Virus record (IMG/VR): IMGVR_UViG_3300048930_001331 | DNA length: 64,000 nt | From: an uncultured virus (IMG/VR IMGVR_UViG_3300048930_001331) | Lineage: Duplodnaviria; Heunggongvirae; Uroviricota; Caudoviricetes | Reading direction: 5' to 3' (one strand) | Translations under genes and position numbers: made by a program | Notes under the pieces: generated by a model | What the model was told of the DNA's origin: nothing | The model's database searches: none | What the model saw: only the letters and a program-made list of their open reading frames with translations | Part shown: positions 8,628-24,647 of the stretch, piece by piece | How the letters are laid out: every line of letters starts with the position of its first letter | Position numbering within the stretch: position 1 is the first letter of the stretch

Positions 8628-11600
8628 TCATGCATCCTTTCGGTAGATGGGTATCCAGTCGCCGCCGCTCTTGCGCCACCCATCCGTGACCAGTCGCCAT
8701 GTGCCACCGAGCTTCCCGTGGGCGGTCGGGACGAGCCATGCGCCGCCGTATTTTGCGAAGATCAGATCGATATCGAGCGATAGTCCGATCGAGCTGAAGA
8801 CATGCGGTCCGAAGCTGAGGTCAGATGCCTGCAGCACCTGCGCTTGCGACAGCGGCGGCGCTCCGAGTCCATAGGCACCGAACGAGAGAGGCGTTGCCGC
8901 AAGGCTATGTGCTTGAGACAGCGGCGGCGAGCTGAGAGAATACGAGCCGACACTCAGTCCAGTCGCCGAGAGCAGCCTGATCAGCTTTGCGGCAGGCGAC
9001 CCCAGGACGGGCGAGCCAATCACCATTGCGTTTGCGATCAGATTTCTGATCACCGTCATGGCCGGTGACGGCAACGTCGGCGTCGTCTGCAAGCCGCTCG
9101 CCGTTAGCTTGTGCACCTGCGACAATGCTGGCGCCGCCAGCGACGGCGCGCCGCTCGAGAGCGCGTTCGCAGCCACGAGCGACACGATGAAAGCTGACGG
9201 CGTCCCGAGGGTGTGCGGGCTGGCGGTGAGGTTGCTCGCGCCAAGAACATGCGCTTGCGCCATGGCTGGAGAGCCAAGCACCGGCGTCGTCGTGATCGGC
9301 ACCGCGGTGAACTTATGGACCTGCGAAAGCGCTCCTGTGCCTATGGTCGGCTGGCTGATCGGACCAAGCGTGACGCTGTGTATTTTGATCTGACCGCTCG
9401 CGGCAGAATCAAAATCAAACCTGATCCGCGTGATCGTGGAGTCGACCCAATCCGTGCCCCCGGTGTTGAGCACGCGCATGTCGAGTTCGATGACAACACG
9501 CTCGCCCACCGTCTCAAAAGCGGCAGGGATCGTCTTTCGATATGAGCCAGAATAGCTGTGCCCGGCCGTCGTATAGTAGAGGCTACCATCCCAACCGCCT
9601 ATCGATCGGGCCTGGGTCCGAGTCGCCTCGATACGAATAATCGGATACGCCGATCCCGATATGCTGATGTTCGGGCTGTAGAGCTGCGGGTCAGATTGCG
9701 TCTGGGTGAAGATCGCGCCGTCCTCGTCGGCAACGAGGGTGTTGGTGCCTGTGGTCGCCCACCCGGCCAGGGTGTTCAGGAAGGCGTAATTCAGATTGGG
9801 GGTGACGAAGCTGATCGGGAACGCGACAAGCTTGTGCACCTGATTCAGCGCGGGACTTGGCAGAACCGGCGTTACCGTAATCCCATCAGCGGTCGCGATC
9901 GTGACGATATTGATGTCAGGGACATCCAGCGTCGGCTCGTCGAGGATCAGGCTGTCAGCCTGAAGCAACCGGATGAGGGTAAAGCCCGGCGAACCGAGGG
10001 TGTGCATAGCCGCAGTCAGGTTGCCGGCCGTCAGCTTGTGAACTTGCGCCAGCGCCGGAGTCGCGAGCGCCGGCGCGCTTCCCGACAGCGCCGCCGCAGT
10101 AAGCTGATGCGTGATCGATAAGGTCGGAGACCCGAGAGACGGCGCTCCTGCTGATAGGTCGTCCGCCGAAAGGATGTAGCCGATGCCGCTGATCGCATCG
10201 CCGCCCAGCGGAAGCGAGGCGAGAGGTGCGAAGCCGCCGATCGGCGCGCCCATCGGTATCGCGTCAAACGGCACCGAGACCGTGAGAGCCGGCGTGTCCA
10301 AGACCGGCGCGCCAGCCGACAGCGCGCTCGCAGTCAGGGGCTGGATGTAGCTGAAGGACACCGGACCCAGAACGGGAGGTCCGATAGTCGGGGCGTTCGC
10401 CGTCAGCGCATGGATTTGCGCCAGCGTCGGGTTGCCGAGCGTGGGGGCTCCGGCCGAAATCTCGGTCGCCACGAGATTATATGCGAACTCCCAGCCGGTA
10501 TTGTTCCCACTCGAAACCGAACCGGTGCCTGGCGCCCACGTCGCGCCGCCGGTCGCGTTTGAGTCCTTGACGTCGAGGTATGCCCCGGTGACGGTGCCAG
10601 ACGCCTTCGACAAGGTGTGCTGCACACCGTCTTCTGTCGACCGAATGGCAATCGGGTTGGAGGCGTTGCCAGTGAGCGTCACCGAGCCGGTGAAAGTCTG
10701 CGTGACCCCCGACTCAAACTGCGCGGTGCGTGTGCCATTGTCGCTTCTGGGCGATATCGTGAAGGCGCCGAAGCTGTTCGCACCAAAAATGGATAGCGCA
10801 CCAGAGCCATTCCCAGCCCACGTGAATGACGGATAAGTCCTGCCACCGCCGGAGAACACCTTGGCGGTCGCGCTGTTATTGGTCAGCGTGATCGCGGCGG
10901 TGCCGGCGTTGAAGGTCAACCCCGTGATCGTCGTGAGGTCCCATACTGTCGCGGTGCCGCTCAGCGACCATGCCCCGGACCCCATCGTGAGGGTTCTGGT
11001 ATTTGTGTTGCTGCTCTCGAAGGAGCCCGCGCTGACATTGAACCCATTCGCATTGAAACTGCCGCGCGTGAGCGTGATTTTGCGCGCGCCGATATTCAGG
11101 TTGTCCGCAAGCGTCCAGCCGCCGCCGTCACCGTCGAAGGTGAAAGGCCGGTTGACCGTGATCCCGTTGGTCGTGATGGTCTTGCCGGTCGATTGCGCGG
11201 TAAGGATGAAAGCTCCGTTACCATCAGCAACAGACATACCGCTTGAGAATGTCAGGTTGCCGCGGACGGAGGCGTCTCCGTTGGCCGCCGATATCGAGCC
11301 TCCAAAACCAGTGAAATCCAGGTTGGCGCAGTCGATGCCATTGAGCGTCACAACGCCGGTGCCGGCGGACACCTTGACGTCGCCGACGACAAGTCCGCCG
11401 AGCGAGATGATCCGTGCGTTTGAGCCGGAGCCGTTGGCCTCTAAGAGGCCGGCCGCGCCGCTGAATGTCAGGTTCGTCGTCGTCGAAAGATTGATGACCG
11501 TCGAGATCGAGTGCGCCTTGATGGCGCCAGCGCCCATAGTGATGGAGCGGACGTTGCTGTTCGATGACGAGAACGTGCCACACTCGATGGTATAGCCATT

Positions 11601-12413
11601 CAGATCGAGACCACCCGCGCTATGGACAATAGCGCGCGCCGTGTCCCCGTCCTGGCTCACGACCAGGTTCGACTGAAGCTGATATGTCCCGCTGCCGCTG
11701 AAAGATACGGGGCGGTTTAGCTTCCCTCCAGCACTGATCGTGTGGGAAGCCGATCCATTGAACGCGATCGAATTTGTACCGCCCGTCCAAGCCACGCCGC
11801 TAGGTGATGTGAAGCTGCCATAGAGCGTGAGGTTCCCCAGACCTACGGTTCCGGCAAAGCCGGTGAGATCAAGGTTCCTTATAGCGGTGCTTGAGAACGT
11901 GAAGGTTCCTGTGCCCGCTGAGACTTTGACGTTCAGGGCACTGTTGCCAACGCCCAAAGTGCGGCTCGCGCTGCCGCTATATGAGAGATCGAGATAGTCG
12001 AAGTTTTCCGGCGAAACGACGAGGGGAAGCCCGATGGTTCCGGAGCCGGTCAGCTCCAGGATTGCGCCAGCGAGAGTGCTCTGGACGTTCCATGACGACG
12101 AAGCAGCAATGTTCTCGGCCGTGAGCTTGAAGCCCCTGAGATCGATTCCACGAACCGCGCCAGAGCCAGTAATCACCCCAAGGACGGTCAGGTTGGCCGC
12201 CATGACGTGAGGTAGCGTAGATCCCGAGATCGAAAGGGACGCGATAGTGATCGCGCTATTGACCGTCGTCGTACCGGCACCCGAGTTGGCATCGAACACG
12301 ACGTCGTCGCCAGAGCCAGGCACCGACGCCCCGCCCGATCCACCCGAAGAGGTGGACCAGCGCGCGGTGTCGGTCCAGTTGCCCGTGCCACCAACCCAAT
12401 AGCGAGTCGCCAT
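8628..12413 (-). CDS. Large fibre/spike protein (beta-solenoid-like N-half, Pro-spaced repeats)
   Basis: MATRYWVGGTGNW start; G/S/T/N-rich repeats; repeated PxLGxPxLxQxH units. Confidence 0.8.
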   Translation of the reverse strand: MATRYWVGGTGNWTDTARWSTSSGGSGGASVPGSGDDVVFDANSGAGTTTVNSAITIASLSISGSTLPHVMAANLTVLGVITGSGAVRGIDLRGFKLTAENIAASSSWNVQSTLAGAILELTGSGTIGLPLVVSPENFDYLDLSYSGSASRTLGVGNSALNVKVSAGTGTFTFSSTAIRNLDLTGFAGTVGLGNLTLYGSFTSPSGVAWTGGTNSIAFNGSASHTISAGGKLNRPVSFSGSGTYQLQSNLVVSQDGDTARAIVHSAGGLDLNGYTIECGTFSSSNSNVRSITMGAGAIKAHSISTVINLSTTTNLTFSGAAGLLEANGSGSNARIISLGGLVVGDVKVSAGTGVVTLNGIDCANLDFTGFGGSISAANGDASVRGNLTFSSGMSVADGNGAFILTAQSTGKTITTNGITVNRPFTFDGDGGGWTLADNLNIGARKITLTRGSFNANGFNVSAGSFESSNTNTRTLTMGSGAWSLSGTATVWDLTTITGLTFNAGTAAITLTNNSATAKVFSGGGRTYPSFTWAGNGSGALSIFGANSFGAFTISPRSDNGTRTAQFESGVTQTFTGSVTLTGNASNPIAIRSTEDGVQHTLSKASGTVTGAYLDVKDSNATGGATWAPGTGSVSSGNNTGWEFAYNLVATEISAGAPTLGNPTLAQIHALTANAPTIGPPVLGPVSFSYIQPLTASALSAGAPVLDTPALTVSVPFDAIPMGAPIGGFAPLASLPLGGDAISGIGYILSADDLSAGAPSLGSPTLSITHQLTAAALSGSAPALATPALAQVHKLTAGNLTAAMHTLGSPGFTLIRLLQADSLILDEPTLDVPDINIVTIATADGITVTPVLPSPALNQVHKLVAFPISFVTPNLNYAFLNTLAGWATTGTNTLVADEDGAIFTQTQSDPQLYSPNISISGSAYPIIRIEATRTQARSIGGWDGSLYYTTAGHSYSGSYRKTIPAAFETVGERVVIELDMRVLNTGGTDWVDSTITRIRFDFDSAASGQIKIHSVTLGPISQPTIGTGALSQVHKFTAVPITTTPVLGSPAMAQAHVLGASNLTASPHTLGTPSAFIVSLVAANALSSGAPSLAAPALSQVHKLTASGLQTTPTLPSPAMTVIRNLIANAMVIGSPVLGSPAAKLIRLLSATGLSVGSYSLSSPPLSQAHSLAATPLSFGAYGLGAPPLSQAQVLQASDLSFGPHVFSSIGLSLDIDLIFAKYGGAWLVPTAHGKLGGTWRLVTDGWRKSGGDWIPIYRKDA

Positions 12414-12431: not shown

Positions 12432-12815
12432 TCACGACGGCGCCGGGATGCCGACGTCGAACGACGGCAGCGAGAAGGCGTTGCCGTTGGTCACAGCTTG
12501 TGACGACGAAAGTGAGTTGGCGGCCAGAAGCCGCGAGTTCGTCACTTCGCTCACAGCCCAATGCGTAGCGGTGCCGGTCGCGGTTACAGCACCATCCGTG
12601 ATGGCCGTGGACGCAACCTTTCGGCCGGATGGCGTCCGGTCAGCCGGCGCGCCGAATGCAGAGCCGGACGCGCCGTGGTCCTTGTTGCCGAGCGAATAGG
12701 TCGACGTCGCTTGCGTGTATGTCGCCGGCTCGGCCGAGCAGATGTCGATACGGTCAGCTTCCGTATCGAGAACATTCAGACCAAGGTCCAAGACCCGTGG
12801 ATTCAGGTACGACAT
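12432..12815 (-). CDS. Virion structural protein (fibre-associated)
   Basis: DGAVTATGTATHWA motif; GGAG SD; tail context. Confidence 0.65.
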   Translation of the reverse strand: MSYLNPRVLDLGLNVLDTEADRIDICSAEPATYTQATSTYSLGNKDHGASGSAFGAPADRTPSGRKVASTAITDGAVTATGTATHWAVSEVTNSRLLAANSLSSSQAVTNGNAFSLPSFDVGIPAPS

Positions 12816-12827
12816 TGATCCAGCTCC

Positions 12828-13196
12828 TTACTTTGCCGCCAGGGTGACGGCGGCAGACATGGCTGCGTCTTCGGCCTCGAAAGGCTCGCCATGCAGTTGC
12901 CACCTGTTGTCTTTCCAGATGTAGAGGTAGTAGACGCGAGCGTCGGAGAGCCAATCGACGTAATCCATCGGCTTGCCCAGCTCGATCCGCTTTCCGAACG
13001 AGTCGATCGCGTAACGCACCTTCTGCTCGCCGTTCACGGTCTCTTCGATCGGAGCGTGATAGTGCGAAGCCGTGACTTCGTTCGACAGCAACTCCTCGGT
13101 CGCCACAGCCTTGCGCCGCACATGCCCCTGCTCGACGCGGACTTTGGACTTGCCCTCGATATCCGTGATGGTGTCGCTGACTTTCTTGATCTGCAT
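12828..13196 (-). CDS. Hypothetical protein
   Basis: GAGGA SD; in-operon ORF. Confidence 0.6.
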   Translation of the reverse strand: MQIKKVSDTITDIEGKSKVRVEQGHVRRKAVATEELLSNEVTASHYHAPIEETVNGEQKVRYAIDSFGKRIELGKPMDYVDWLSDARVYYLYIWKDNRWQLHGEPFEAEDAAMSAAVTLAAK

Positions 13197-13212: not shown

Positions 13213-13956
13213 TTACGGCGCGACTTTGAACCAGAGATCGCCGTCTACGCCGCCTGACGGGTTGCTCTCACTGACGGTGATGGCGTGAATGCCGAGCGCA
13301 TCGAGGACCTGCTGCACGGTCGGCAGCGGGTACCAGGTCCAGTTCGCGTTCGAGTTCGGTGGAGTCGGTAGCGCGTTGCCGACGTTGCCATTCGCGTTTG
13401 ACACGAACAGGTAATTCCCGTTCTGCACCATGTCGTTCTGCGCGTAGGTGGTGACGCCGCTGTAGTTGCCGCGCGGCTTCCAGATCACGCCGACTGTGAC
13501 GACCGGTTCGAGAACGCCGTTGCGCCACTGATAGATCGTGCGTGTCACCGCATCGACGAACAGCGAGTTGTTCTGGACGAGCGACCAATCGATGTCGTCT
13601 GCAGTGTTGCCGACGAGGCCTTGGTTCTGCTCAAGGAACGCGTTGAACCGCGCGTAGACCGCCGCCTGCGTTGCGCCGTTCGCGATAGCTGGGCCGTCGA
13701 TCAGCTCGTAAGCAACATTCGTGAGCGTTTCGCCATTGAACGGCGACACGAGCGGAAGCTCGAGGTTTTCGTAGATGCCACGCGGATCAACCTCCGCGAC
13801 TGTACCGACACGGATTGGAGCAGCGTTGTCTGGCACCGCCCATATCTGTGATCCGGCACGATCCCGGCCGCCCCATGCCGTGCCGGTGCCGGAAACGATG
13901 CTCTCGCCGGAGACGACAGAGATCGTCCCTGTGGTGTAGGCAAACCGCTCGGTCAT
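13213..13956 (-). CDS. Tail fibre/adaptor protein
   Basis: YTTGTISV..VSGTGTAW N-terminus; WKPRGNYSGVTTYAQND module; PSGGVDGDLWF end. Confidence 0.7.
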   Translation of the reverse strand: MTERFAYTTGTISVVSGESIVSGTGTAWGGRDRAGSQIWAVPDNAAPIRVGTVAEVDPRGIYENLELPLVSPFNGETLTNVAYELIDGPAIANGATQAAVYARFNAFLEQNQGLVGNTADDIDWSLVQNNSLFVDAVTRTIYQWRNGVLEPVVTVGVIWKPRGNYSGVTTYAQNDMVQNGNYLFVSNANGNVGNALPTPPNSNANWTWYPLPTVQQVLDALGIHAITVSESNPSGGVDGDLWFKVAP

Positions 13957-14366
13957 GCCACCACCGCGGACAAGTTGATGGTGGTGTTGCCTCCATACGT
14001 TCCGGTCGAGGTGTATTTCCAGCGGAAGCGATCGCCCAGGATGCCGGAGATGGCGGTGTTATCTGTCAGCGTCCCATCGGTCGGCGTCGCCAGCGTCGTG
14101 ACTGCGGTCGCATCCGTTAGGTTTGCCTCGCGAATCGCGCTGGCCGTGGTGAGCGCCACACACATGATGTCGCGCCACGTAACCCCCTGATCGAGCGACG
14201 TCTGGAGATAGACCTTGAAGGATGTGCCGCCCGATCCGTAGACAAAGTTGACGCGCGGCGTGATCCGGCGAATTCCTTCCAGCCGCTCCACGACCTCCGT
14301 CGTAACCCCAGCGGCCGCCGCCGTTATGATCTTTGGCGTCCACAGTCGATAACCGGGAATGATCAT
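13953..14366 (-). CDS. Virion structural protein, beta-sandwich-like
   Basis: KVYLQTSLDQGVTWRD; GILGDRFRWKY; ATGA-coupled. Confidence 0.65.
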   Translation of the reverse strand: MIIPGYRLWTPKIITAAAAGVTTEVVERLEGIRRITPRVNFVYGSGGTSFKVYLQTSLDQGVTWRDIMCVALTTASAIREANLTDATAVTTLATPTDGTLTDNTAISGILGDRFRWKYTSTGTYGGNTTINLSAVVA

Positions 14367-14533
14367 TCTTCGGGCTCATTCTGGATGGGGAGTTCGATCA
14401 GGACTTGGTCCTGTGAGAGATCGAGAGCTTCAGAACCTTGGTCGCGCGCTCTCTTGAGGAATCGGCGCTCATCGCGCAGACGCTGCGCCTCAGCGTCACG
14501 ACGACGCTGCTCTGCCGGATGTCGGTTGTTCAA
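14363..14533 (-). CDS. Small charged hypothetical protein
   Basis: TTG start overlapping the stop of 14530..15159; stop overlaps the next ATG. Confidence 0.4.
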   Translation of the reverse strand: MNNRHPAEQRRRDAEAQRLRDERRFLKRARDQGSEALDLSQDQVLIELPIQNEPEE

Positions 14534-15159
14534 AGCTGGTTTCTCGGCGTCAGCAGCCGGCCGCGAAATCCGCTGAGCGACCAAGAGTTGGTGCTGCTCG
14601 GCGTGGCCAGTATGTTTCCGAACGTGACGCGGATCTGCCACGTGTAGGTATGGACGCCTGGGGTTGGAGTTGGCTCCCACCACCGAAACGCATCGCCGAT
14701 CATGACGTCTGAATTGACCGGGCCGGTGAAGCCGCCGGCGTAAGGGAAGCCAGGAGCTGAGCTGGCGTCCCATCCGGGCGCTGGCCATTCGGAGGTCGTC
14801 ACATCCTTCAGCATCCGGACGTATGCGCGAAACTCGGCTAGTCCCGAATGCGTGAGCACAACGGTCAGAACGCCCGTCGTGACCGATATGTCGATGAAGT
14901 AGTTTCTCGCGTCAGTCGTCAGTGTCCACGACAGGATGTCGATCCATCCGGAGTCGTAAACCGTATTGACGTTCGTGGCGCCGATCGCGCTGGCCTGAAC
15001 CTTTGCTTCGGTTCCAATCACGCTTCCGGGCAAGATCACATTCCGGAAGCGAGACTGCCCATCGACGACCTCGAAGACTGGTATTGGATCGCCGGAGGAT
15101 TGCTGGGCGTAGAGCTGTACCTGCGATTTACCGCCGAGGGCCTGGAGTGATCGGCTCAC
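14530..15159 (-). CDS. Free-standing tail-tip C-terminal domain cassette 2
   Basis: (M)SRSLQALGGKSQVQLYAQ...YDSGWID...PGVHTYTWQIR...PRNQL, parallel to the tip protein C-terminus; GTG start inferred. Confidence 0.8.
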   Translation of the reverse strand: MSRSLQALGGKSQVQLYAQQSSGDPIPVFEVVDGQSRFRNVILPGSVIGTEAKVQASAIGATNVNTVYDSGWIDILSWTLTTDARNYFIDISVTTGVLTVVLTHSGLAEFRAYVRMLKDVTTSEWPAPGWDASSAPGFPYAGGFTGPVNSDVMIGDAFRWWEPTPTPGVHTYTWQIRVTFGNILATPSSTNSWSLSGFRGRLLTPRNQL

Positions 15160-15793
15160 CGAGGCGGTCTTGCCACGACCTAACAATCCGCTGTCTCGCC
15201 CCAGCTTGGTCGAGAGTCGTGAGTTCGAGAAAGCCGCCGACGATGTGATGCGATCCGCTGCCGAACGGCAGTTCGGCGCGCGATCGTCGCATGGCTTCGA
15301 CGTAATCCACACCATGCCGCTCTGCCTTGAAGTCTTCTGGGTCCGCTGGCGCAGCGAAGCCTGCGAGCGCCGACGAATCCGGCGTTGGAGCGCCAAATAC
15401 CGGAGCGCTGATGCGCTCAAGCCGATGTCTGATCTGGTCTTGATGCAGGTCGTGACCCGCTAGGAAGAAAACCTCTGGGCCGCGTCGGTAGCAGCAGACC
15501 GCGATCTCGTAGTGTCGCGAGCGATCACCGAGAGTCGTCTCGGCCACGCGCTCGCATTCCATCAGAGCGGTCGGCAAGCGTGAGATCAGTTCAGAAGCGC
15601 TCATAGACCGCGTCACGGCTGAAACAAGATTGCCGATCAGACTCTCGCCTCTGACTGTGACTGCAGCCCTTCCATCCTTGGATATGGCCACCTTCGATTT
15701 GACCCGGACCAGACGTGCCTGCCGGTCAAGAACGGCCGCGTCGGTCAATAGCTCGACCCGATGAGCCTTCAGGATGCACAGATACGCGCTCAT
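15128..15793 (-). CDS. Proteasome-beta/Ntn-hydrolase-like protein
   Basis: After Met removal: Ser1, Asp17, Lys33, Gly48; late IVGGFLELTTL strand; ATGA-coupled to cassette 1. Confidence 0.65.
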   Translation of the reverse strand: MSAYLCILKAHRVELLTDAAVLDRQARLVRVKSKVAISKDGRAAVTVRGESLIGNLVSAVTRSMSASELISRLPTALMECERVAETTLGDRSRHYEIAVCCYRRGPEVFFLAGHDLHQDQIRHRLERISAPVFGAPTPDSSALAGFAAPADPEDFKAERHGVDYVEAMRRSRAELPFGSGSHHIVGGFLELTTLDQAGARQRIVRSWQDRLGEPITPGPRR

Positions 15794-16392
15794 ACTTGGT
15801 TCTTCGGGTAGAGGACGCGCAGTTTCAGACCATCCTTCAGGTCGACGATATCCGCCCCCCCAGAGCCGTTGGTCACGAGAAACTTGACCTGCCATTTGTA
15901 GGTGTAGGTGCCAGGAGATGGCGGGGTGTCGGAGAAGTCGAGCGTCTGGAACAGATAGCCGCCTGTCAGCGACACGCCTGTCGGCCACGCGAAAAACGGC
16001 ACTCCGTCGAATGCGATCGGCGGATACACCTGAGAGCCGTTGCGCAGCAGCCTCGCCAACAATCGCCCGCCTGGATTTGTCGCCGTGATCGTTATGTCGA
16101 CAAGGCCGATGCGGATTGAATGATCCACGAAGCCCGTAGTTGCGTCCGCAAGGACGTCGACTGACACTGCGTCGATCCAACCGGAATCATAGTTCCCAGA
16201 CGAATATGTGAGGTTGCGGGTAATCCGCGCCCCGGTCGTCTGGAGCGCGCCCACGACCGAGTCGGGAAGGAAAAGAGCGCCTTGGACGCGCGCTTGGCCG
16301 CCCGATACCACGAATACCGGCTCGGGCTCTCCAATGGCCTTCTGGGCGTAAATCTGGACTTGCGACTTGCCCCCGAGCGCCTGCGTGGTCAT
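15790..16392 (-). CDS. Free-standing tail-tip C-terminal domain cassette 1
   Basis: MTTQALGGKSQVQIYAQKA...YDSGWIDAV...PGTYTYKWQVK...YPKNQV; ATG overlaps the tip gene stop. Confidence 0.88.
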   Translation of the reverse strand: MTTQALGGKSQVQIYAQKAIGEPEPVFVVSGGQARVQGALFLPDSVVGALQTTGARITRNLTYSSGNYDSGWIDAVSVDVLADATTGFVDHSIRIGLVDITITATNPGGRLLARLLRNGSQVYPPIAFDGVPFFAWPTGVSLTGGYLFQTLDFSDTPPSPGTYTYKWQVKFLVTNGSGGADIVDLKDGLKLRVLYPKNQV

Positions 16393-19300
16393 GCCTGGAT
16401 TTGATTCTTCGGATAGATCGCGCGCACGAAGAGGCCGGCGAAGCTGAAGTTGTCGCCTGACCCGCTGCCCCCAGAAGCGACGCGCATCCGGACCTGCCAC
16501 TTGTAAGTGTACGTCCCGCTCGACGGAGGAAGATCCACGAAATCATATGGCGCGATACTGTAGACGGACGTCGCGAGCGCGCCGCTGGTGCCAAAAATCG
16601 GTATGCCGTTCGAGAAGGCAGACGGCGGATGAATTTGAGTGCCGTTCCGCAGAAGGCGGATCGAGGCCGTCATTGCAGCGCTGAAGCTGAAGTCCACGTT
16701 GCCGACCTGCATTGAAAGGTCGACGCAATCAGTCGTCGCATCGACGATCGCATCCACTTCGACTGCGTCGATCCACCCCGAGTCGTACACCCCTCCGGAA
16801 TACGTGATGCCGCTTCGCGCAACCACCCCACCCTGCTCTTTTGCAGCGCCCAGCACGTCACGCGGAAACAAGACGCTGCCATCAAGCCGGACAGCATTGT
16901 CCGCCACGGTGAAGACCGGGACCGGGTCGCCGACCGCCTTCTGCGCATAGATTTGCACTTGAGACTTGCCACCGAGCGCGGTGACGCCGGCGTCAATCAC
17001 GATGCCGGCCTGGGCGAATGTGTCGGAAGAGGACGCCCTCGCCTGAAGCTCAATACGAGACGAGGCACCTCCCGGCGCAGCGCCGGTTGTGATTCTGAAC
17101 AACCCCTTTGCCGACAGGTCGTCGTAGTTCGATTCAGCGTAAGTCTGAAGCAAGGCCAGAGAATTCTCGACCGTCGCTACCGTGACCTGCAGCTCGTTGA
17201 TAGTCGAGTTGATCTGACCGCTCAGCTCCGCAGCGACTGTCTGCTCCAACTGCGCAATTGCTTCGTTCGCGCTCGTGAACGCAGCTTCAACAGTTTCGAC
17301 ATACGCTTCGATGTCTGTACCGAACGCAGCCTCGACGGTCTGCTTGAAGAGAGCGAACGCCTCGTCAGCATCAGCAATCGCCACCATGGCTTGCTGGACC
17401 GCAGCGGCGTTCTGGCCATATCGCTGTCCGACGCCGATCCGGATCTGCCCCAGAGACTCGATGATCCCGGAGACCTGATTATTCAGCGCCTGCGATACTT
17501 GCGCGATCTGCTGCTGAAAATCTTCCGAGCGCTGGAAAATCTGCTCCTGGAACTGTTGGATTTGAGCCCTCAACGCGAGGTCGAGAGCCCGGTCATTGAC
17601 GATCTGCGGCGGCAGCTCGGGCAACGGCACATCGGAGACGAAAGCGTAGGTCCATGGACCGGGCCGCTGCCCGATCGCAGCGACCCGTAGTGTCACGTCC
17701 TGCGACTCGATCGATACCGCCAGTCTCGTCCCGACACTGTCATGCACCGGGGTCCAGGACGCAGCGTTGGGCGCGCTATCGGCGTTTTCGTCGTAGCTGA
17801 TCTCAGCGATATAGCGCTGCGCGCCCGGCGACGGCTGCCAGCCCGCCTGCAATTCGACACCCATGGTGACGCGCTCGGCCTTGGCATACAGGCCGGTAAT
17901 GACCGGTGCATCAGGGATGGGCGCGAAGATGTCCGGTGGGGTGTAGGGCGCCGGGGTCGTTTCGGTTTCATCGGCGGAATGGACGCGCTGGTCGTCATTG
18001 ACGCACACAACGTCAACGAATTTGCCGTTCGGTCGCGCGCCGACGACAAGCCCATCCCACAACCTCGTGCCGGCACCGATCAGGAGAGAGACGTGCGCGG
18101 GCTCGGACCGGCCACCTGGGATCAGGCCCTCAAGCTCGCCGTGCGCTGCCTCAACGATGAATCTATCGGCGGCATCGAGCCTGATTTGCCGCTCTGTCGG
18201 AAAGCTATGGACAAGGCAAGGCCCCCACTCGCGCCCAAGCCGATCTCGGATAATGACATGATACTCAGCCTCACTTCCGGGATCGAGGTCTCGATCAACG
18301 GTAATGACCGGAGTGGAGACCGAGGGATCAAACGACTCGAGCGCCGCAATTCTCGTCAGGGCGTCGTACAGCGGGTCGTGAAGCAGGATAGGATCGCCTC
18401 GAACGAGGAGTTTGCCCTCGCTCTCTACCGTGAATGATCTGAACGACCTGCGGTAGGCGTTATCCGCCGTCCTGTAGATGCCCTCCCGCCACGCGTGGCT
18501 TCGGTCCGAAATGCCGAACATCTCACGCTCTACGGGTTCGGCATCGCCGACGCTAGAGATGATGCAGTCGACGGTTCGCTCGCTCCAGACCTCGGCGTCA
18601 ATGTAGCGCGCGATCGTGTGATCCGGCGTCTCCTCGTCGAACCATATGTCCTTTCGCTTGATGGAGCCGCGGACGATGTTTCGCGGAGTAAAGACGGCCC
18701 GGCGGACCTGCTTCGGCTCATCTCGCACAAAGCCGATCCTGCCACCGAGGCGCACCACTGAAGACCGACCACAGCTCAGGACTGCGTTGATGGCCTGCAT
18801 GGCCACCCACTTGCGATCAAACACGGCGTCAAAGTTGTCGCCGCGGCCAGCCCAAATATCGTGGTAGGCTTCGAGCCAGTCGAGGTCGACGTCAGCATCC
18901 GCGATGCCGAGACCGTAATCGGAGTCGGTCAATAGGTCAGCGGCCGCCCATGCGATGGACCGAGTCGACGCCTTTTCAGTCCATTCACCGTCTGCACGAC
19001 CGCGGAGCACTCGCGTCCCGGTGAAGAAATACTGACCGGCCGAGCTTTGGCTCAGCTGCTCGCTCGCCTTGATTTTAGTCGCTATCAGCGTCACGCCTTG
19101 AGGCGTCGGAAAGCCGCTCAAATAGCCGCGAAGCCCAGCCCACAGCACGCGATTGACCGTGACGGAGTCGCTGTTGTTGTCAGTCAGGTCCGGCGTGGTC
19201 GACGACAGCTTTACCTCGTAGCGCCCCGCCGCGACGTCCACTCGCTCACTGAACCTCAGTGGCGTCTTGGTCCGGTTCTGGTACGTCTTCTCGAACAGCG

Positions 19301-20330
19301 TGACGAACGATCCGATACCGATCCCGCTATTGTCGACGGGTCTGTATTCCGCCTTGACGTGACGGGATGCGTCTCTGGGCTTGCCCTGATCGTCAAGTCC
19401 GAAGAGGCCCGAGGGAAACACGAGATCGATGGCGATTGCCGTAACCGTCGTGTTCGTGGGGTTGACCACGTATGGGCCGAGGGTATCGGGAGGCGACGGC
19501 AAAACCTGACCCGAGACAGCATCGGAGACCGATACGTTGATCGGAAACAAGGTGATGTCGGTACCCGGCGGAGCAACCTGAATCTCGAGCCCTGCGAACG
19601 CGTCGGACGCCCCGATGCCCTGTTGCCACGCGACCGTGTCACCGATCTCCAGCTTGGAGATGACGGCCTCACCGCAGGTGAAGCAGTGGAGCTGATACAG
19701 ATACTGATCGTTTCCAACGAACTCCGCGTAGGGGCGGGAAGCGTATGGTGGCGGATAGCGCACGCGCCCGTACACCACCGGCACAGGCTCCAGAGGCATG
19801 GCGCGGTTGCCGCTCGCGGAGACCGAGTAGACGGTCTCTCCCGAAACGGATTCCTTTGCCTGGCTGACCGGGACCTGCGGCGGCGGGAATAGAACATTGA
19901 GCGCCAACGACCCGCCGGCAATGAAGGCGACGGAAGCGACGGACGCCATGAAGGTGCCGGCACCGAAGATCAGGCCGGCCGCGTATGGAGCCGCGATGGC
20001 GAGACCGATGGCGGCAACAAGTCCAACGATGCGCTTCCCAGACCCGCCACCAAGACCACCGCGACCCGGCACGGACACAAAGGCAAGCGTTTCACCGTGG
20101 CGAACAACACGAACATGCCACTGACCGCGCAGGACCGGAGCCGCCTCGACATCGCGACCGCACATCACAGCAATGGTCGGGAGACGAAACTTCAGATCGC
20201 ACTCGGCTATCGCTTCCGCGATCGTCATAGGGCGCGCAAGTTCGATCTTGCGCATATCGGTCGGCACCGGGCCGGTCATGGTCACGACGACCGGCGCGCC
20301 GCTCAGATCGTGGGGTGCGACATGCTTCAT
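16389..20330 (-). CDS. Central tail tip / host-specificity protein (lambda J-like, N-terminal gpI-like region fused)
   Basis: 1313 aa after NlpC/P60; VPVVYGR, SIAWAAADLLT, VRDEPK..FTPRNI motifs; coiled coil before the last domain. Confidence 0.9.
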   Translation of the reverse strand: MKHVAPHDLSGAPVVVTMTGPVPTDMRKIELARPMTIAEAIAECDLKFRLPTIAVMCGRDVEAAPVLRGQWHVRVVRHGETLAFVSVPGRGGLGGGSGKRIVGLVAAIGLAIAAPYAAGLIFGAGTFMASVASVAFIAGGSLALNVLFPPPQVPVSQAKESVSGETVYSVSASGNRAMPLEPVPVVYGRVRYPPPYASRPYAEFVGNDQYLYQLHCFTCGEAVISKLEIGDTVAWQQGIGASDAFAGLEIQVAPPGTDITLFPINVSVSDAVSGQVLPSPPDTLGPYVVNPTNTTVTAIAIDLVFPSGLFGLDDQGKPRDASRHVKAEYRPVDNSGIGIGSFVTLFEKTYQNRTKTPLRFSERVDVAAGRYEVKLSSTTPDLTDNNSDSVTVNRVLWAGLRGYLSGFPTPQGVTLIATKIKASEQLSQSSAGQYFFTGTRVLRGRADGEWTEKASTRSIAWAAADLLTDSDYGLGIADADVDLDWLEAYHDIWAGRGDNFDAVFDRKWVAMQAINAVLSCGRSSVVRLGGRIGFVRDEPKQVRRAVFTPRNIVRGSIKRKDIWFDEETPDHTIARYIDAEVWSERTVDCIISSVGDAEPVEREMFGISDRSHAWREGIYRTADNAYRRSFRSFTVESEGKLLVRGDPILLHDPLYDALTRIAALESFDPSVSTPVITVDRDLDPGSEAEYHVIIRDRLGREWGPCLVHSFPTERQIRLDAADRFIVEAAHGELEGLIPGGRSEPAHVSLLIGAGTRLWDGLVVGARPNGKFVDVVCVNDDQRVHSADETETTPAPYTPPDIFAPIPDAPVITGLYAKAERVTMGVELQAGWQPSPGAQRYIAEISYDENADSAPNAASWTPVHDSVGTRLAVSIESQDVTLRVAAIGQRPGPWTYAFVSDVPLPELPPQIVNDRALDLALRAQIQQFQEQIFQRSEDFQQQIAQVSQALNNQVSGIIESLGQIRIGVGQRYGQNAAAVQQAMVAIADADEAFALFKQTVEAAFGTDIEAYVETVEAAFTSANEAIAQLEQTVAAELSGQINSTINELQVTVATVENSLALLQTYAESNYDDLSAKGLFRITTGAAPGGASSRIELQARASSSDTFAQAGIVIDAGVTALGGKSQVQIYAQKAVGDPVPVFTVADNAVRLDGSVLFPRDVLGAAKEQGGVVARSGITYSGGVYDSGWIDAVEVDAIVDATTDCVDLSMQVGNVDFSFSAAMTASIRLLRNGTQIHPPSAFSNGIPIFGTSGALATSVYSIAPYDFVDLPPSSGTYTYKWQVRMRVASGGSGSGDNFSFAGLFVRAIYPKNQIQA

Positions 20331-21303: not shown

Positions 21304-21689
21304 CAGGTTGCTCGCGTGTAGTCCACGACATCGATAGTCCAACTGACGGCGGTTCGATCAGGCGGGACATCGGATGTGGTGTATTCGCCGCTCACCATCG
21401 AGCAGACCCGCTCTGCATACTCGTCAGCGGTTTGGGTCCAGACCGGCATCGTGAACGGGAGAGTTCCGTCGACGAGCGTGTTCCGGACCCAGAGCGCGAA
21501 CGCCTCGAACTCGTCCTTCGACCAGTCGACGAATGTGAATTGGATGGTTGCGATATTCTTCGTGGATGACCGCCGCGCCCTGCGATTGCCATCCTCGAAT
21601 TCGGTGCGGTGAGGCGCTCGATATGGAGCGCTCTGACGGAATGTGCTGCGCTGCACCTTGTACGGAACACCCTCCGGCCACTCTTCCAT
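21303..21689 (-). CDS. Distal tail protein-like
   Basis: Directly after the tape measure; WP..RTEFEDG..R.R; LVDGTLPFTMP. Confidence 0.75.
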   Translation of the reverse strand: MEEWPEGVPYKVQRSTFRQSAPYRAPHRTEFEDGNRRARRSSTKNIATIQFTFVDWSKDEFEAFALWVRNTLVDGTLPFTMPVWTQTADEYAERVCSMVSGEYTTSDVPPDRTAVSWTIDVVDYTRAT

Positions 21690-24313
21690 CAGACCACCCT
21701 GCGCAGACCGTAGGTTCGCTCAAGGATGGCTGCCAGCGGGCCGCCTCCAGCGACATCTCTGGCATTCGCGTCAACGACGAAGCGGGCGAAGTTCACCCCA
21801 CCTTCCTGACGCGTTCCGGCTGGCTTGGCCGGTACGTGCTGTCCATTCTCGTCGACCAGCTCGATCTTCAGATTGACCTCTGAAGAACCACCGTGCATCT
21901 CGACACCAAGGCGCCCGCCAGGACCGCGCGTCAGCGGCATGATGGCTTCCGGCTTCCCGTTCTCGACCGCCGTTCCGATGTTGCCGCCCGCCATCGGGAA
22001 GGCCACGGGGCGATCGATGACGCCACCCAGAGAATGCGGAATGATCCGGCCGCCCTGGAACACGTTGCCATTGAGGCTTGCCACCATTCCGCCGGGCATC
22101 CACGGATTCCCGATGCCCGAATAGGTCGAGATGCCAGCACCGCCACCGCCAAAGACACTGCCGAGCCCACTGACAAGGCTGGTCACGCTCTTGGAGAGCG
22201 CCAATTCCGTCAGCTTGTTGCCAAGCTGCGTCAGGGCGTTGATGCCGGCTTGCAGGAATGCATCCCAGCCCTTCTGGCCTTGCTGCAGCCCTGAGATCGT
22301 GTCGCGGTACAGCGAGGTGCTGAAATCCACGGCCATGGCCTTGCCCTGGCGGAGGGTCTCGTTGAAACGGACCTGATTGGCGATGTAGCCGTTCATCTGG
22401 CTTCCATAGTCATCGCCATAGATCGCCCGGAGCCGCGCCGCGGTCGCCTGCTCGGTATCGGAACGGCCGAGCTGGCTGCGCTCGAATGCAAGATCGCTCG
22501 CGGCCTGAGACTCGGCAATCAGCTGCCGGCGGCGTGCGATCAGGTCATTCTCGCGAGACAAGCGCGCGTACTGCGCCTCGTCGAATTTGAGATTGTTGCG
22601 CTCGGCCTCGCGACGCAGGTCAGCGTAGAGCTGCCAGTTTGAGCGCAGGCGCTCGGTCTCGCCCACGGACTTGCCAATCACGGCGAGGTCGACCTCCGCC
22701 TGACCGGCCGCATCCTTGATGGCGAGCGCACGGTCGCGCGCTGAGTCAATGAGCTGCCGCTCTGCCTGCCCGCGCGCAAGAGCGGCTGCGGCCGCGACTT
22801 GATCGTTCTTCGCCTGCTCGGCGAACACCGTATTGGCCTGCCCGCCAAGCTGGATTCTCGTGCGGATCGCAGCCGCGGCAGCAAGCTCGCCGGGAGACCG
22901 CGCACCGAGCGCGGCTATGGCTGCGCGATCCGAGATAATGGCGGTCTCGGACGCGGAGCGGACGCCATTGAGCGCGTCGCGCTTACGATCCAGTGCCTGA
23001 GATACCTCGGCTTCGGAATTGGCCAACAGGCCGTTCTGCTGGAGGCGCTGACGCTCCTTCTCGATCAGGTCTATCTCGGCCTGAATCTGCTTGCGCATCG
23101 CCTCTTCCGGAAGCGACGTCCGAACAGCGTTGCCGACAGCGATGGAGGTGCGGTCCAGCGCCGCCTTCTCCTGCTCGCCTCGCACCCGGATCAATTTCTG
23201 CTCGAACTCGTCGAGCTTCCGTAGCGCCTGATCGGACACCATCTTCTCGTAGCGCTCGCCCAGAAGATTGGCCCAAGGCACACTCTCCTGCATGCGCTTC
23301 TTCTGCAGCTCGATCTCGGATTCGAGGGTTCGGCCGACGCTGGTCAGATCGGACATCTTCTGCCCGAGCTTGTCCCACGCATTACTGACGAGGTTGCCGG
23401 CGCCAGTGGCGACGACGGTGAAGAAGCTCTGCGTGCGCGTCATGTTCGCCAGCGCGGCATTCGTGGCGTCGATGACGGCGGCCTGGGCCTGGCTGCGCCG
23501 ACCGGAGTCTTCCTGAAGACGGATGGACTCGCGCATGCGATCGTTACCTATGCCGATCACATCATTGAGCTTGTCGAAGCCTGCCGTTGGGCTCTTGATT
23601 GAATCGCCCAACAGCTTCGCGGCATCCGCCCCATCGTAGCCGAGGCGCTGGACCATCATGGTGATGGTCGACAATAGAGGATCGATGCTGCGCTGCCCGA
23701 TCTTGCCAGTCGTCGCGAGTTCTGCCGCAAAGGCGCGCGCTTCGCGTACTGACAGCCCGAAGGTGGACGCAGCGGACTTGGCGATGTCGTTGATGCCTTG
23801 AACGCTTACGCCTGACGCCCTGCCGATGCCGTTGAGGCTGCGCTCCAGGTCCTGTTGCTGGCTGGCGTAAGACTGAAGCGACAGACCGAGCCCTACGAAC
23901 CCCGCCGCAACTCCGGCCGTGGCACCCTTGGCTGAAAACGCCCAAGCGGCGACGCTCTTCGCAAGGTTGCTGAAGAGCCCCGGCTGCATCTGGAACACCT
24001 GAAAGACCTGACCGCCCTGCTGGGTCAGGATCTGAAAGGGGCTCTGGCCCATCGCCAGTCCGGACAAAATATCGTTGAGCTGGAACGACAGGTTGGACAT
24101 CGCGCCCGACGTCCAGTCCACTCGCCGCCCAGCCTCCTGGGCGTCCTGGCCCATCCGGCGGAAACCACGACCGGCCGCGGAGCCGGACCGCTCGATACGA
24201 GTGCTCACCCGCTCAGCGGCCTCGCCATGCTCGACGAATCGATCCAGTTGCGTATTGGCGTCCTGGACTGGTCTACTGTCGATCCTGAGACGGAGGTCAG
24301 CGAGGTCGGTCAT
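21689..24313 (-). CDS. Tape measure protein
   Basis: MTDLADLRLRIDS; QLNDILSGLAMGQSPFQILTQQGGQ; long helical region; PEAIMPL near the end. Confidence 0.92.
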   Translation of the reverse strand: MTDLADLRLRIDSRPVQDANTQLDRFVEHGEAAERVSTRIERSGSAAGRGFRRMGQDAQEAGRRVDWTSGAMSNLSFQLNDILSGLAMGQSPFQILTQQGGQVFQVFQMQPGLFSNLAKSVAAWAFSAKGATAGVAAGFVGLGLSLQSYASQQQDLERSLNGIGRASGVSVQGINDIAKSAASTFGLSVREARAFAAELATTGKIGQRSIDPLLSTITMMVQRLGYDGADAAKLLGDSIKSPTAGFDKLNDVIGIGNDRMRESIRLQEDSGRRSQAQAAVIDATNAALANMTRTQSFFTVVATGAGNLVSNAWDKLGQKMSDLTSVGRTLESEIELQKKRMQESVPWANLLGERYEKMVSDQALRKLDEFEQKLIRVRGEQEKAALDRTSIAVGNAVRTSLPEEAMRKQIQAEIDLIEKERQRLQQNGLLANSEAEVSQALDRKRDALNGVRSASETAIISDRAAIAALGARSPGELAAAAAIRTRIQLGGQANTVFAEQAKNDQVAAAAALARGQAERQLIDSARDRALAIKDAAGQAEVDLAVIGKSVGETERLRSNWQLYADLRREAERNNLKFDEAQYARLSRENDLIARRRQLIAESQAASDLAFERSQLGRSDTEQATAARLRAIYGDDYGSQMNGYIANQVRFNETLRQGKAMAVDFSTSLYRDTISGLQQGQKGWDAFLQAGINALTQLGNKLTELALSKSVTSLVSGLGSVFGGGGAGISTYSGIGNPWMPGGMVASLNGNVFQGGRIIPHSLGGVIDRPVAFPMAGGNIGTAVENGKPEAIMPLTRGPGGRLGVEMHGGSSEVNLKIELVDENGQHVPAKPAGTRQEGGVNFARFVVDANARDVAGGGPLAAILERTYGLRRVV

Positions 24314-24647
24314 GAGGTTAGCCCTGATTTTCTTGATTTTGTCGACGCCAGCGCTCGCCCAGAGCCAGACAAAGGACGCTGAGGCGGCTATGCGGGAGCG
24401 CCTTCGCGATCCACAATCGGCCCGCTTCGAGGACCTGCGGGTGGTCCCAAACCCGGCCAAGCCCGGTGCCGAGCTGGTCTGCGGCTTCGTGAACGCCAAA
24501 GGTCAGGGCGGCGGATATCTGGGCAAAACCCCGTTCGTCTATGCGGCTCCGTCAGCCTATCTGGGCGGGAACTTCGACATGATTTCCGGTCCGCACGACA
24601 TGGACCGCATCCTGGCAAGCCGCATCAGCTCCGAGTTTTGCCCTTGA
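24312..24647 (+). CDS. Secreted/periplasmic moron protein
   Basis: Signal peptide MRLALIFLILSTPALA; LRDPQSARF..VCGFVNAK..GGYLG. Confidence 0.75.
   Translation: MRLALIFLILSTPALAQSQTKDAEAAMRERLRDPQSARFEDLRVVPNPAKPGAELVCGFVNAKGQGGGYLGKTPFVYAAPSAYLGGNFDMISGPHDMDRILASRISSEFCP

Follow-up and report, generated by a model that had tools for sequence, protein, structure and literature searches.

Free-standing paralogues of the J head domain downstream of the central tail fibre gene of a lambda-like siphophage

Gene J and the head copies downstream of it

The window, a 64,000-nucleotide stretch of DNA from an uncultured virus, carries on its minus strand genes for terminase, portal, capsid, tube, tape measure, gpL, gpK and J, as identified by Pfam and PHROG profile matches, and the region described here is the distal end of the tail operon of this lambda-like siphophage, a prophage. 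The ATG of J at 20330, set by comparison with P0004, overlaps the stop of the upstream NlpC/P60 gpK-like gene, and the database copy of the protein (P0022) is likewise 1313 aa long. J matches PF24801 (FNIII-A_GpJ, 3.3e-12) and PF13550 (2e-7) in Pfam, and phrog_31 ('central tail fiber J', 5.6e-69) and phrog_469 (1.4e-85) in PHROG; its neighbours include PF06791 tape measure, DUF1833 and NlpC/P60 genes. With an N-terminal hub, FNIII families and a position after tape measure, gpM, gpL and gpK, J is a lambda-type central tail fibre. The features of the region are as follows.

16389..20330, minus strand: central tail fibre / tip attachment gene J, 1313 aa
16980..17108, minus strand: pre-motif segment of J (GLFRITTG...SRIELQARA...AGIVIDAGVT), delimited by sequence comparison
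16389..16979, minus strand: tip copy, the neck and head domain fused to the J C-terminus; motif at 16941-16979
15790..16392, minus strand: c1, free-standing neck and head protein of 200 aa, MTTQ-ALGGKSQVQIYAQ...YPKNQV; motif at 16342-16380
15128..15793, minus strand: intervening ORF, 221 aa, predicted from fold and residues to be a proteasome-beta/HslV-like Ntn-hydrolase homologue
14530..15159 (or -15186), minus strand: c2, free-standing neck and head protein; motif at 15103-15141
13953..14529, minus strand: remainder of the block specific to this window: 163 nt in which a small ORF is possible, then a 137-aa ORF

About 200 aa can be aligned between tip, c1 and c2, with identities to the tip of 50% (c1) and 34% (c2). 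A tblastn search of the window with c1 returned three places, at E 1e-131 (self), 1.5e-54 and 3.5e-24, and no further head copy below E 1. Judged by these alignments, the three copies are anciently diverged paralogues of the last ~200 residues of J, that is, of three neck strands and the head. Near the start of each lies the motif ALGGKSQVQ(I/L)YAQ, which the initial annotation had reported at these three places. Translation of the reverse complements reproduced its positions and counts exactly: the tip and c1 motifs both read ALGGKSQVQIYAQ and differ at 7/39 nt, all third positions; the c2 motif reads ALGGKSQVQLYAQ and differs from the tip at 11/39 (ten third positions and one first position, ATC/CTC, Ile/Leu) and from c1 at 8/39 (seven third positions and one first). 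The segment that precedes the motif in J is kept in J homologues (J, P0004, P0006, P0007 and P0012 were compared) and is missing from the free copies; tblastn found no paralogue of it elsewhere in the window.

A protein identical to c1 (P0020) is called as a gene in the database. For c2, which overlaps the end of the intervening ORF and lies 1.2 kb beyond c1, the candidate starts are a GTG at 15159, giving 209 aa, and a TTG at 15186, giving the 218 aa of its database copy P0002. The 13953..14529 block beyond c2 matched no Pfam or PHROG family, and a counterpart of its 137-aa ORF was not found in the syntenic prophage L004.

The head family is, by profile searches, rare and unannotated, with 18 matches among 1.84 billion representative proteins and no matching Pfam or PHROG family. 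P0012 matches only profile positions 1-51 and continues with a different C-terminal sequence. P0010 matches only positions 37-203 and so is a head without the motif, and in P0006, P0007 and P0010 an extra ~28 residues part the neck from the head; by these comparisons the neck can be separated from the head as a module of its own. The free copy P0003 has ALSEKAQ where others have ALGGKSQ. An apparent second phage encodes a 1290-aa J with a fused head together with two free copies, the longest contig listed for each of the three being 12,990 nt. L004 has the J head and lacks both the free copies and the window-specific block, so the free copies are dispensable for that type of phage. In each of two phages the closest relative of the tip is the c1 of that phage, and vice versa (support 94/95 and 85/87), and orthology groupings were rejected (p-AU 0.022 and 0.016) for groups named after the tree had been seen. 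Copies of the c2 type also occur on other contigs (P0021 and P0005 are 61% identical).

Constraint on the motif and translation of the free copies

Over the full length of the domain, synonymous change between copies has reached saturation (pS 0.69-0.72, or about 0.70), with domain-wide pN of 0.33, 0.47 and 0.49 for the copy pairs; within the motif pN falls to 0, 0.03 and 0.03 at a pS of ~0.75. Since pS is saturated while pN is lower, and 0-0.03 in the motif, this codon comparison supports selection acting on the peptide, as had been proposed. The description of the motif as conserved in protein and not in DNA is correct for the motif but not peculiar to it, as the same saturation runs through the entire domain. 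Indeed, the motif is the most DNA-similar aligned stretch between copies (32/39, 28/39 and 31/39 nt identical, versus 0.55, 0.45 and 0.43 elsewhere in the domain), because its non-synonymous sites are unchanged. Its conservation exceeds chance: in column shuffles the longest tip=c1 identity run was reached in 176/20,000 and the longest three-way run in 184/20,000, a conservative result, as the runs tested (13 and 7) excluded the first two motif residues and were shorter than the true ones.

The longest identical DNA runs between copies are 14, 10 and 10 nt, and none lies at the motif. The only DNA repeats between copies, of 25-38 nt and 76-88% identity, fall at YDSGWID and TYxWQ and not at the motif, and no inverted or direct repeat longer than 38 nt was found in 13500-17600. 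Because no identical run exceeds 14 nt, there is no substrate for crossover, in agreement with the initial annotation, which had argued against the motif as a DNA crossover site. We also rejected recombination cassettes of the orphan toxin, pilS, shufflon or Gin inversion type, given a motif that differs at 7-11/39 nt, runs of at most 14 nt and a c1 ATG of its own coupled to the J stop. A diversity-generating retroelement target was rejected as well: 13500-17600 holds no near-identical template/variable repeat pair, and the copies differ at all base types, with DNA identity of only 43-55%.

Both c1 and c2 are intact frames of 200-209 codons, with GC3 of 0.72-0.74 versus 0.73 for J. An ATGA overlap occurs twice, joining the J stop to the c1 ATG (16389-16392) and the c1 stop to the ATG of the intervening ORF (15790-15793). 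In addition, free homologues begin with Met one or two residues ahead of the motif, as in P0003 (M-ALSEKAQVQVYAQ) and P0005 (MT-ALGGKSQVQIYAQ). These features indicate that the free copies are very probably translated. The same had earlier been concluded from the synonymous pattern, which alone does not imply translation, because silent cassettes recombined periodically into an expression site would also show constraint at the peptide level; the conclusion rests instead on the start-codon anatomy together with the missing DNA homology.

The motif in the modelled trimer and the intervening ORF

Modelled as a homotrimer, c1 gave an ipSAE of 0.78 (runs 0.74, 0.78 and 0.82), against 0.00 for the best of three controls; the runs share at least 40% of contacts, and partner pLDDT is at least 76. 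The mark for this score was reached by 20/30 proteins solved as one-chain pairs and by 1/23 solved as single chains, a calibration that applies only roughly to an input of three copies with a 10-row alignment. The modelled interface (expected error below 8 Å) includes residues 12, 14, 16, 18, 26-49, 87-97, 124-131, 145-156 and 190-200. In this model the motif is most likely the first strand of a neck that holds the three-chain head together, with V12, I14, A16 and K18 of c1 packing between the three chains. The first half of the motif, ALGGKS, lies outside the named interface, yet is identical in tip, c1 and c2, so a role in the trimer core alone does not explain its constancy.

The c1 monomer model has a pLDDT of 65 (44-62 over residues 1-50), and a fold search with it returned no significant match. 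Over residues ~45-200 there is weak alignment to trimeric jelly-roll/TNF-C1q-like heads and to the lambda-type gpJ receptor-binding domain (Z 3.8-5.0). The gpJ alignment itself (c1 23-200 against gpJ 987-1126, 120 residues, Z 3.8, rmsd 4.4, from the query model of pLDDT 65) sits among many jelly-roll rows of Z 3-5. A pass of the trimer model can also arise from likeness to solved trimeric heads. By Atlas features the nearest clusters are three of ~200 aa carrying PF12421 Ig_GpJ_C (0.91; 178-180/256 features). Membership of PF12421 was rejected, as 0/10 members of the head family match it even at E 10.

Lambda gpJ is described as an alpha-helical shaft, a beta-sheet prism and a C-terminal trimeric receptor-binding domain (PMC11101478). 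J resembles it in gene position, in its N-terminal families (PF24801, PF13550, phrog_31) and, as far as that description goes, in the order of helical region, beta strands and C-terminal trimeric head, the trimer here being modelled. At the sequence level the head cannot be placed with the gpJ domain: besides the failure to match PF12421, comparing A5 with the C-terminal 250 aa of lambda J by hhalign gave a probability of 0.24%. Lambda has a single fused head with lom downstream, whereas head paralogues lie downstream here.

The intervening ORF gave an AF2 model of pLDDT 82.6 and pTM 0.85, for which every top Foldseek match is a beta subunit of the 20S proteasome (E 1e-9, prob 1.00, TMq 0.55). 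S/T2, D18, K34 and G49 are invariant across five sequences of the ORF, and we take the first three to be the Thr1, Asp17 and Lys33 of the proteasome. Its Atlas cluster (score 0.95) has PF00227 in 27% of members; the PF00227 profile itself does not match the ORF in Pfam. The modelled fold and the N-terminal Ser/Thr, Asp and Lys identify it as a predicted enzyme, a proteasome-like Ntn hydrolase. Relatives occur in 3/401 genomes for this query, in late regions beside tape-measure-like or prohead-protease-like ORFs; no head domain was found in these three genomes, and no match to the ORF in G074, the one genome with the J head. Since the ORF also occurs in phages without the motif, it is not the partner of the motif.

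The motif had been called a recognition or assembly signal. Assembly holds in the modest sense that the motif is a strand of the modelled trimer neck; recognition by the product of 15128..15793, the Ntn-hydrolase homologue, is unsupported. Taken by itself, the claim about the motif is unremarkable: a structural strand under strong constraint, shared by paralogues that diverged long ago.

Possible roles of the free heads

We consider it somewhat probable that c1 and c2 are translated, free paralogues of the J head, that the motif is the first strand of their neck and that they form trimeric 'mini-tips'. The J C-terminus would then run from an alpha-helical shaft through a short beta-strand segment into a head of ~150 residues, and both free copies would be translated where they lie, c1 through coupling of its start to the J stop. 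The motif would be held constant because the trimer must form and register, leaving the outer parts of the head free to diverge, and its role in the trimer neck would make each free copy self-sufficient. Most likely, the free copies are extra receptor-binding proteins made alongside J, as other siphophages encode receptor-binding proteins directly downstream of J. We infer both receptor binding by the free heads and whether, and how, free trimers would join the virion. Counting against this account, J already carries its own head, a docking site for a free trimer is not evident, with the pre-motif segment present once in the window, and L004 does without free copies.

The host range of siphophages is set at the tip of J, where either a fused head or a dedicated receptor-binding protein is the known solution. 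Small siphoviruses, Drexlerviridae among them, have receptor-binding-protein loci directly downstream of gpJ homologues; these genes are credited with the terminal receptor specificity, a function that may lie in a C-terminal extension of J instead, and the separate protein and the extension are described as replacing one another (PMC8594841). The present locus is like those described there in having separate small genes immediately after J, with c1 starting at the J stop; unlike them, it has the fused head and two free paralogues together, and a superinfection-exclusion lipoprotein of the kind described is not evident. A T1/T5-like arrangement, in which J itself has no receptor-binding head, was rejected, as J has a complete head of its own, a paralogue of c1 and c2. 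Both solutions are thus present at one locus, with all three heads under purifying selection. Should the virion carry the free heads, their conserved neck would offer a natural and portable junction at which receptor-binding heads could be swapped or added; otherwise the free heads would represent a new kind of soluble phage accessory protein.

It is rather unlikely that the N-terminal motif of the free heads is a docking signal that binds J or another tail protein non-covalently, perhaps as a further layer of strands on the exposed end of a beta-prism, so that a virion would carry two or three different heads. In every free copy the motif does lie at the very N-terminus, 1-6 residues past the start, and includes the ALGGKS that the trimer model leaves unused; the within-phage pairing of tip and c1, with its post hoc groups, would fit co-adaptation; and non-covalent attachment of receptor-binding proteins to J-like proteins is described as an established arrangement (PMC8594841). 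However, the fibre end is occupied by J's own head, the window encodes no other protein that terminates in the pre-motif segment, and the ALSEKAQ of P0003 shows that this part of the motif tolerates change. We regard as unlikely the related idea that one operon makes three interchangeable receptor-binding tips without DNA rearrangement, with c1 and c2 trimers docking on J or replacing its head through the motif; if true, several receptor specificities would be on display across the phage population or on every single virion, with the motif serving this head family as a universal plug. A role as spare parts seems distinctly unlikely. Here the free copies would be displaced or duplicated heads left downstream of J, an evolutionary reservoir expressed only incidentally, with head modules exchanged between phages at the neck/head boundary. 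The cassette boundary is indeed the module boundary in other J proteins (P0012, P0010 and the P0006/P0007 inserts), the tip-c1 pairing suggests repeated duplication or exchange, and the block is absent from the syntenic prophage. Moreover, polymorphic toxin systems have orphan C-terminal cassettes, said to diversify by recombination, in which stand-alone copies starting at a conserved junction motif follow a long gene with a variable C-terminal module, much as here (PMC3482391). Unlike the toxin cassettes of that account, the copies at this locus have a junction without DNA homology, which leaves present exchange without a substrate, have their own starts coupled to an upstream stop, and lack an immunity-like partner after each copy. 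Unexpressed copies at saturated pS should also hold stops or frameshifts, but all are intact with pN well below pS, and c2-type copies persist on other contigs.

Very improbably, in our view, the free heads are soluble, non-virion trimers that mask receptors on debris or neighbouring cells after release at lysis, or that help the J head to fold. They have no evident virion attachment site and no signal peptide, would have their synthesis tied to that of J by translational coupling, and are dispensable in the related prophage; but we know of no case in which a paralogue of a head serves as a decoy or chaperone. It is extremely improbable that the motif is a processing site at which the proteasome-like protein encoded alongside cuts J or joins heads to it, in a protein-level exchange of heads. 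The predicted fold and invariant S/T2, D18 and K34 would suit such an enzyme, the start points of the free proteins nearly coincide with the place in J where a cut of this kind would be made, and connectase, a proteasome homologue, is described as a sequence-specific protein ligase (PMC7980362). Adjacency, however, is the sole link between ORF and motif, and the distribution of the ORF (relatives in genomes without the head domain, no match in G074) argues against it. The ORF resembles PPH, AAH and RPC, proteasome-like homologues of phages and hosts, as they are described in PMC8665760: it shares with them a predicted proteasome-beta fold and a phage-borne and proteobacterial setting, and at 221 aa it is longer than PPH (~140 aa).

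Three copies of a tail-fibre head and the constraint on their motif

A complete set of siphophage structural genes lies on the minus strand of the window; it is listed here together with the genes that follow the central tail fibre.

36440-37897, minus strand, terminase, among the head genes
minus strand, further head and tail genes: portal-like DUF4055 protein, Mu F-like protein, capsid, tail terminator and tube protein
21689-24499, minus strand, tape measure, among the tail-tip genes
minus strand, further tail-tip genes: gpM-like gene, gpL-like DUF1833 protein, NlpC/P60 gpK-like protein and J-type central tail fibre
16389-20330, minus strand, J, 1313 aa (database copy P0022)
15790-16392, minus strand, c1, free-standing head gene, 200 aa (database copy P0020)
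15128-15793, minus strand, 221-aa proteasome-beta/HslV-like Ntn-hydrolase homologue inside the tail-fibre region
14530-15159, minus strand, c2, free-standing head gene (database copy P0002, 218 aa, from TTG)

Three homologous stretches of ~200 residues, each opened by the motif ALGGKSQVQ(I/L)YAQ, form the C-terminus of J (the tip), c1 and c2; c1 and c2 are 50% and 34% identical to the tip, respectively, and there is no fourth copy within the window. The motif intervals translate as ALGGKSQVQIYAQ in two cases and as ALGGKSQVQLYAQ in the third. The initial annotation had proposed, from the nucleotide differences between these intervals, that selection acts on the peptide and that the motif is not a DNA crossover site. 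Its counts of 7 (tip-c1) and 11 (tip-c2) of 39 nt were exact, and c1 and c2 differ at 8; apart from the first-position Ile/Leu change, every difference falls on a third position. Both proposals are upheld by what follows.

By a Nei-Gojobori count on a codon alignment of the three copies, pS and pN were 0.70 and 0.33 for tip-c1, 0.72 and 0.47 for tip-c2, and 0.69 and 0.49 for c1-c2, and sliding windows placed pS near saturation all along the domain. Within the motif pS was 0.74-1.05, on ~9 sites, and pN was 0 to 0.03. Since pS is saturated everywhere, the motif is ordinary at synonymous sites and exceptional in its low pN only. It is also the best-conserved stretch of aligned DNA (72-82% identity versus 43-55% elsewhere), as two in three of its positions are not free to vary. 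The observed identity runs were equalled in 176 and 184 of 20,000 column shuffles, in a test that left out two motif residues and hence understates the runs.

The longest identical runs were 14 nt between tip and c1 (at WIDAV) and 10 nt for each of the other pairs. A repeat finder returned only repeats of 25-38 nt with 76-88% identity, located at YDSGWID and TYxWQ and not at the motif, and no inverted repeats of note. One contig, at a depth of ~6, was colinear over 14862-17107 with no joints, a result that, coming from the contigs of one DNA run, is too weak either way on rare rearrangements and does not bear on expression; that DNA run is the only one listed with this stretch, and no RNA run is listed.

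Translation of the free copies and the distal operon

The free copies are very probably translated, as had been proposed, to judge by their coding features. All three frames are intact over at least 200 codons despite saturated divergence, with pN well under pS, and the GC3 of the copies (0.72-0.74) is that of J (0.73). The ATG of c1 overlaps the stop of J (GC ATG A), and the ATG of the next ORF overlaps the stop of c1 in the same way. Free homologues from other assemblies begin at the motif: P0003 (200 aa) starts M-ALSEKAQVQ, and P0005 (211 aa) starts MT-ALGGKSQVQ. For c2, the start candidates are GTG 15159 and TTG 15186, both within the last codons of the upstream ORF; no clear ribosome-binding site was seen by eye at either. 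A frameshift fusion of J and c1 was considered; inspection by eye found no slippery heptamer before the ATGA.

The start of J, compared with its 1290-aa homologue P0004, is the ATG at 20330, which gives 1313 aa and overlaps the stop of the gene before J. Overlaps of 4 nt between stop and start form a chain through the distal tail operon, at 20327-20330 (gpK/J), 16389-16392 (J/c1), 15790-15793 (c1/proteasome-like ORF) and 13953-13956 (137-aa ORF/247-aa ORF); the ATGA was read in the sequence for J/c1 and c1/next ORF, and the gpK/J and 137-aa/247-aa overlaps come from ORF coordinates only. This chain suggests translational coupling of the whole distal block.

Among the head-tail connector genes, 27720-28406 (minus strand) matches PF20557, 'putative DnaT-like ssDNA binding protein' (2e-41), a replication-type name that is odd for a spot inside the structural module.

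The motif in the neck of a modelled trimer

Three observations on relatives place the motif in a neck module (the motif and the strands after it) and not in the core of the head. The database protein P0012, which covers only profile positions 1-51, has the segment of J that precedes the motif, then the motif with ~35 residues beyond it, and ends in an unrelated C-terminus; P0010, which covers only positions 37-203, has a head but lacks the motif; and in P0006, P0007 and P0010 an insert of ~28 residues separates the neck from the head.

As a monomer, c1 was modelled with mediocre confidence (pLDDT 65, with residues 1-50 at 44-62); the model has a beta sandwich preceded by strands at 12-16, 24-30 and 33-36. 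The sandwich aligned weakly (Z 3.1-5.0; VIA wide, best 5.0) with trimeric jelly-roll heads (TNF family, C1q, BclA and phage needle knobs) and, within the same range, with gpJ residues 987-1126. Foldseek with c1 against the PDB gave nothing at E 0.001 or better, and a sequence profile search of the PDB had no hit below E 0.2. In a language-model atlas the ~200-aa clusters nearest to c1 carry PF12421 Ig_GpJ_C (0.91), a link that Pfam and hhalign did not confirm.

As a homotrimer, c1 was modelled with an ipSAE of 0.78, where the highest of three controls was 0.00. Of proteins with a solved structure, 20 of 30 one-chain pairs reach the mark, as does 1 of 23 single chains; this calibration is approximate only, the trimer having been modelled with a custom alignment and three copies. 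At least 40% of contacts are shared between the trimer runs, and pLDDT is at least 76. Residues placed confidently in the interface include motif residues 12, 14, 16 and 18, the stretch 26-49 and, at the C-terminus, 190-200 with P(K/R)NQ. In lambda gpJ, an alpha-helical shaft leads through a beta-sheet prism to a trimeric receptor-binding domain (RBD), with layers of strands directly above the RBD that tighten on receptor binding (PMC11101478). The simplest reading of the model, by analogy, is that QVQIYAQ would be a strand layer of this kind. The conserved islands noticed in the initial annotation would then make up the trimer scaffold, and the diverged parts would be the outer and distal surfaces. 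The possibility raised there against a recognition role, that the motif is just a buried core strand, comes close to the model, in which the strand is buried in the trimer, if in the neck and not in the head. Taken by itself, the motif is probably an unremarkable structural strand under strong constraint.

We favour the view that the free heads would be extra receptor-binding trimers made with J. The first-ranked rival is that they dock through the motif: ALGGKS lies outside the modelled interface, which leaves it unexplained, yet is invariant in the window's three copies, and this keeps a docking role alive; against it, the 110 residues preceding the motif have no paralogue in the window. Ranked below it, in this order, are that the free copies are a reservoir of spare parts, that the free heads are soluble proteins that mask the receptor, and that the motif is a processing site.

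For extra receptor-binding trimers, the nearest precedent is in small siphoviruses, where a receptor-binding-protein locus lies directly downstream of gpJ, and a separate receptor-binding protein and a C-terminal extension of J are alternatives (PMC8594841). In the window, by contrast, the fused head and the free copies coexist and are paralogous. No description of free-standing paralogues of a J head was found in the main texts of the open-access literature, and the locus, where two free paralogues accompany the fused head in a family that is rare and unannotated, is a modestly novel variant of siphophage host-recognition loci.

Relatives, the accessory block and the proteasome-like ORF

The head family is rare: of 1.84 billion representatives, 18 proteins matched the three-copy profile at E <=0.001, 7 of them at E <=1e-10, and the family has no Pfam or PHROG match. 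Some members are fused to J (P0004, P0006, P0007 and P0010) and others are free (P0003, P0005 and P0021). For each of P0004, P0003 and P0021 the longest contig on record is 12,990 nt, and this shared figure, the sole ground for placing them together, indicates that there is probably a second phage with one fused and two free copies. With the alignment of heads (A2), no locus was confirmed in genome_contigs, viral_contigs or metagenome_contigs, and tblastn with c1 against 50,697 phage records gave no match. An alignment based on J (A4) gave a 1,989-nt fragment (L001) and a locus with an unrelated J C-terminus and without free copies (L002), and nothing in viral contigs. Protein searches returned only c1's own fragment with c1 alone, four proteins with A2 at near lengths (two being the window's own), and the window's J only at longer lengths.

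In a tree of nine heads, the window's tip paired with c1 (support 94/95), P0004 with P0003 (85/87) and P0021 with P0005 (100/100), and c2 sat on a long branch, weakly with the latter two (67/72). Trees constrained to group the tips together, or c1 with P0003, were rejected (p-AU 0.022 and 0.016, for groups named after the tree had been seen). The pairing indicates that, independently in each lineage, the c1 type arose from the tip by duplication or was homogenised with it, long ago given the saturated synonymous sites.

The sole head match among 401 genomes of one order was a syntenic prophage (locus L004 of genome G074), where gpK and a J with this head are followed directly by homologues of 13213-13956, 12828-13196, 12432-12815 and the 1261-aa protein. 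L004 is without a free copy, the intervening ORF and the 137-aa ORF; the window block from 13953 to 16392 is therefore accessory. The same block holds, after c2 (13953-14529, minus strand), the 137-aa ORF and 163 nt that may contain a small ORF, neither of which matches a known family. The J of L004 (14627-18392) lies in two overlapping frames, 16461-18392 and 14627-16675, either because the gene is frameshifted or broken or through an error in sequencing; P0007 (608 aa) is the second part only.

The intervening ORF is not recognised by Pfam or PHROGs. Four homologues with 25-32% identity (tblastn) occur in 3 of the 401 genomes, and for a model made with them (pLDDT 82.6, pTM 0.85) the best structural matches are 20S proteasome beta subunits (E 1e-9, prob 1.00). 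S/T2, D18, K34 and G49 are invariant among the homologues; once the initiator Met is removed, the spacing of the first three is presumably that of proteasome Thr1, Asp17 and Lys33. Phage-borne proteasome-like homologues have been described (PMC8665760), and the ORF may belong to the PPH, AAH or RPC clusters published there. The relatives (L005-L008, in three genomes) adjoin ORFs resembling tape-measure proteins or prohead proteases, and their genomes have no head-domain match, so we treat the ORF as an independent accessory gene. Of the initial interpretation, selection at the peptide level, translation of the copies and the lack of a crossover site stand, and recognition of the motif by this neighbouring ORF finds no support.

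More fibre-like genes lie downstream (5621-6661 and 7197-8624, minus strand), for a Gly_rich_2 (PF21722) protein and a 475-aa protein that matches many tail-fibre PHROGs and whose C-terminal 143 residues are 73% identical to a gene of the G074 prophage. The 1261-aa protein (8628-12413, minus strand) has no Pfam or PHROG family match; its N-terminal part is Gly/Thr-rich, and the protein has many ~20-residue repeats of the form xLGxPxLxQxHxLxA. Its counterpart in the syntenic prophage (L004 11042-12679, 545 aa; tblastn E 1e-30) consists almost entirely of such repeats.
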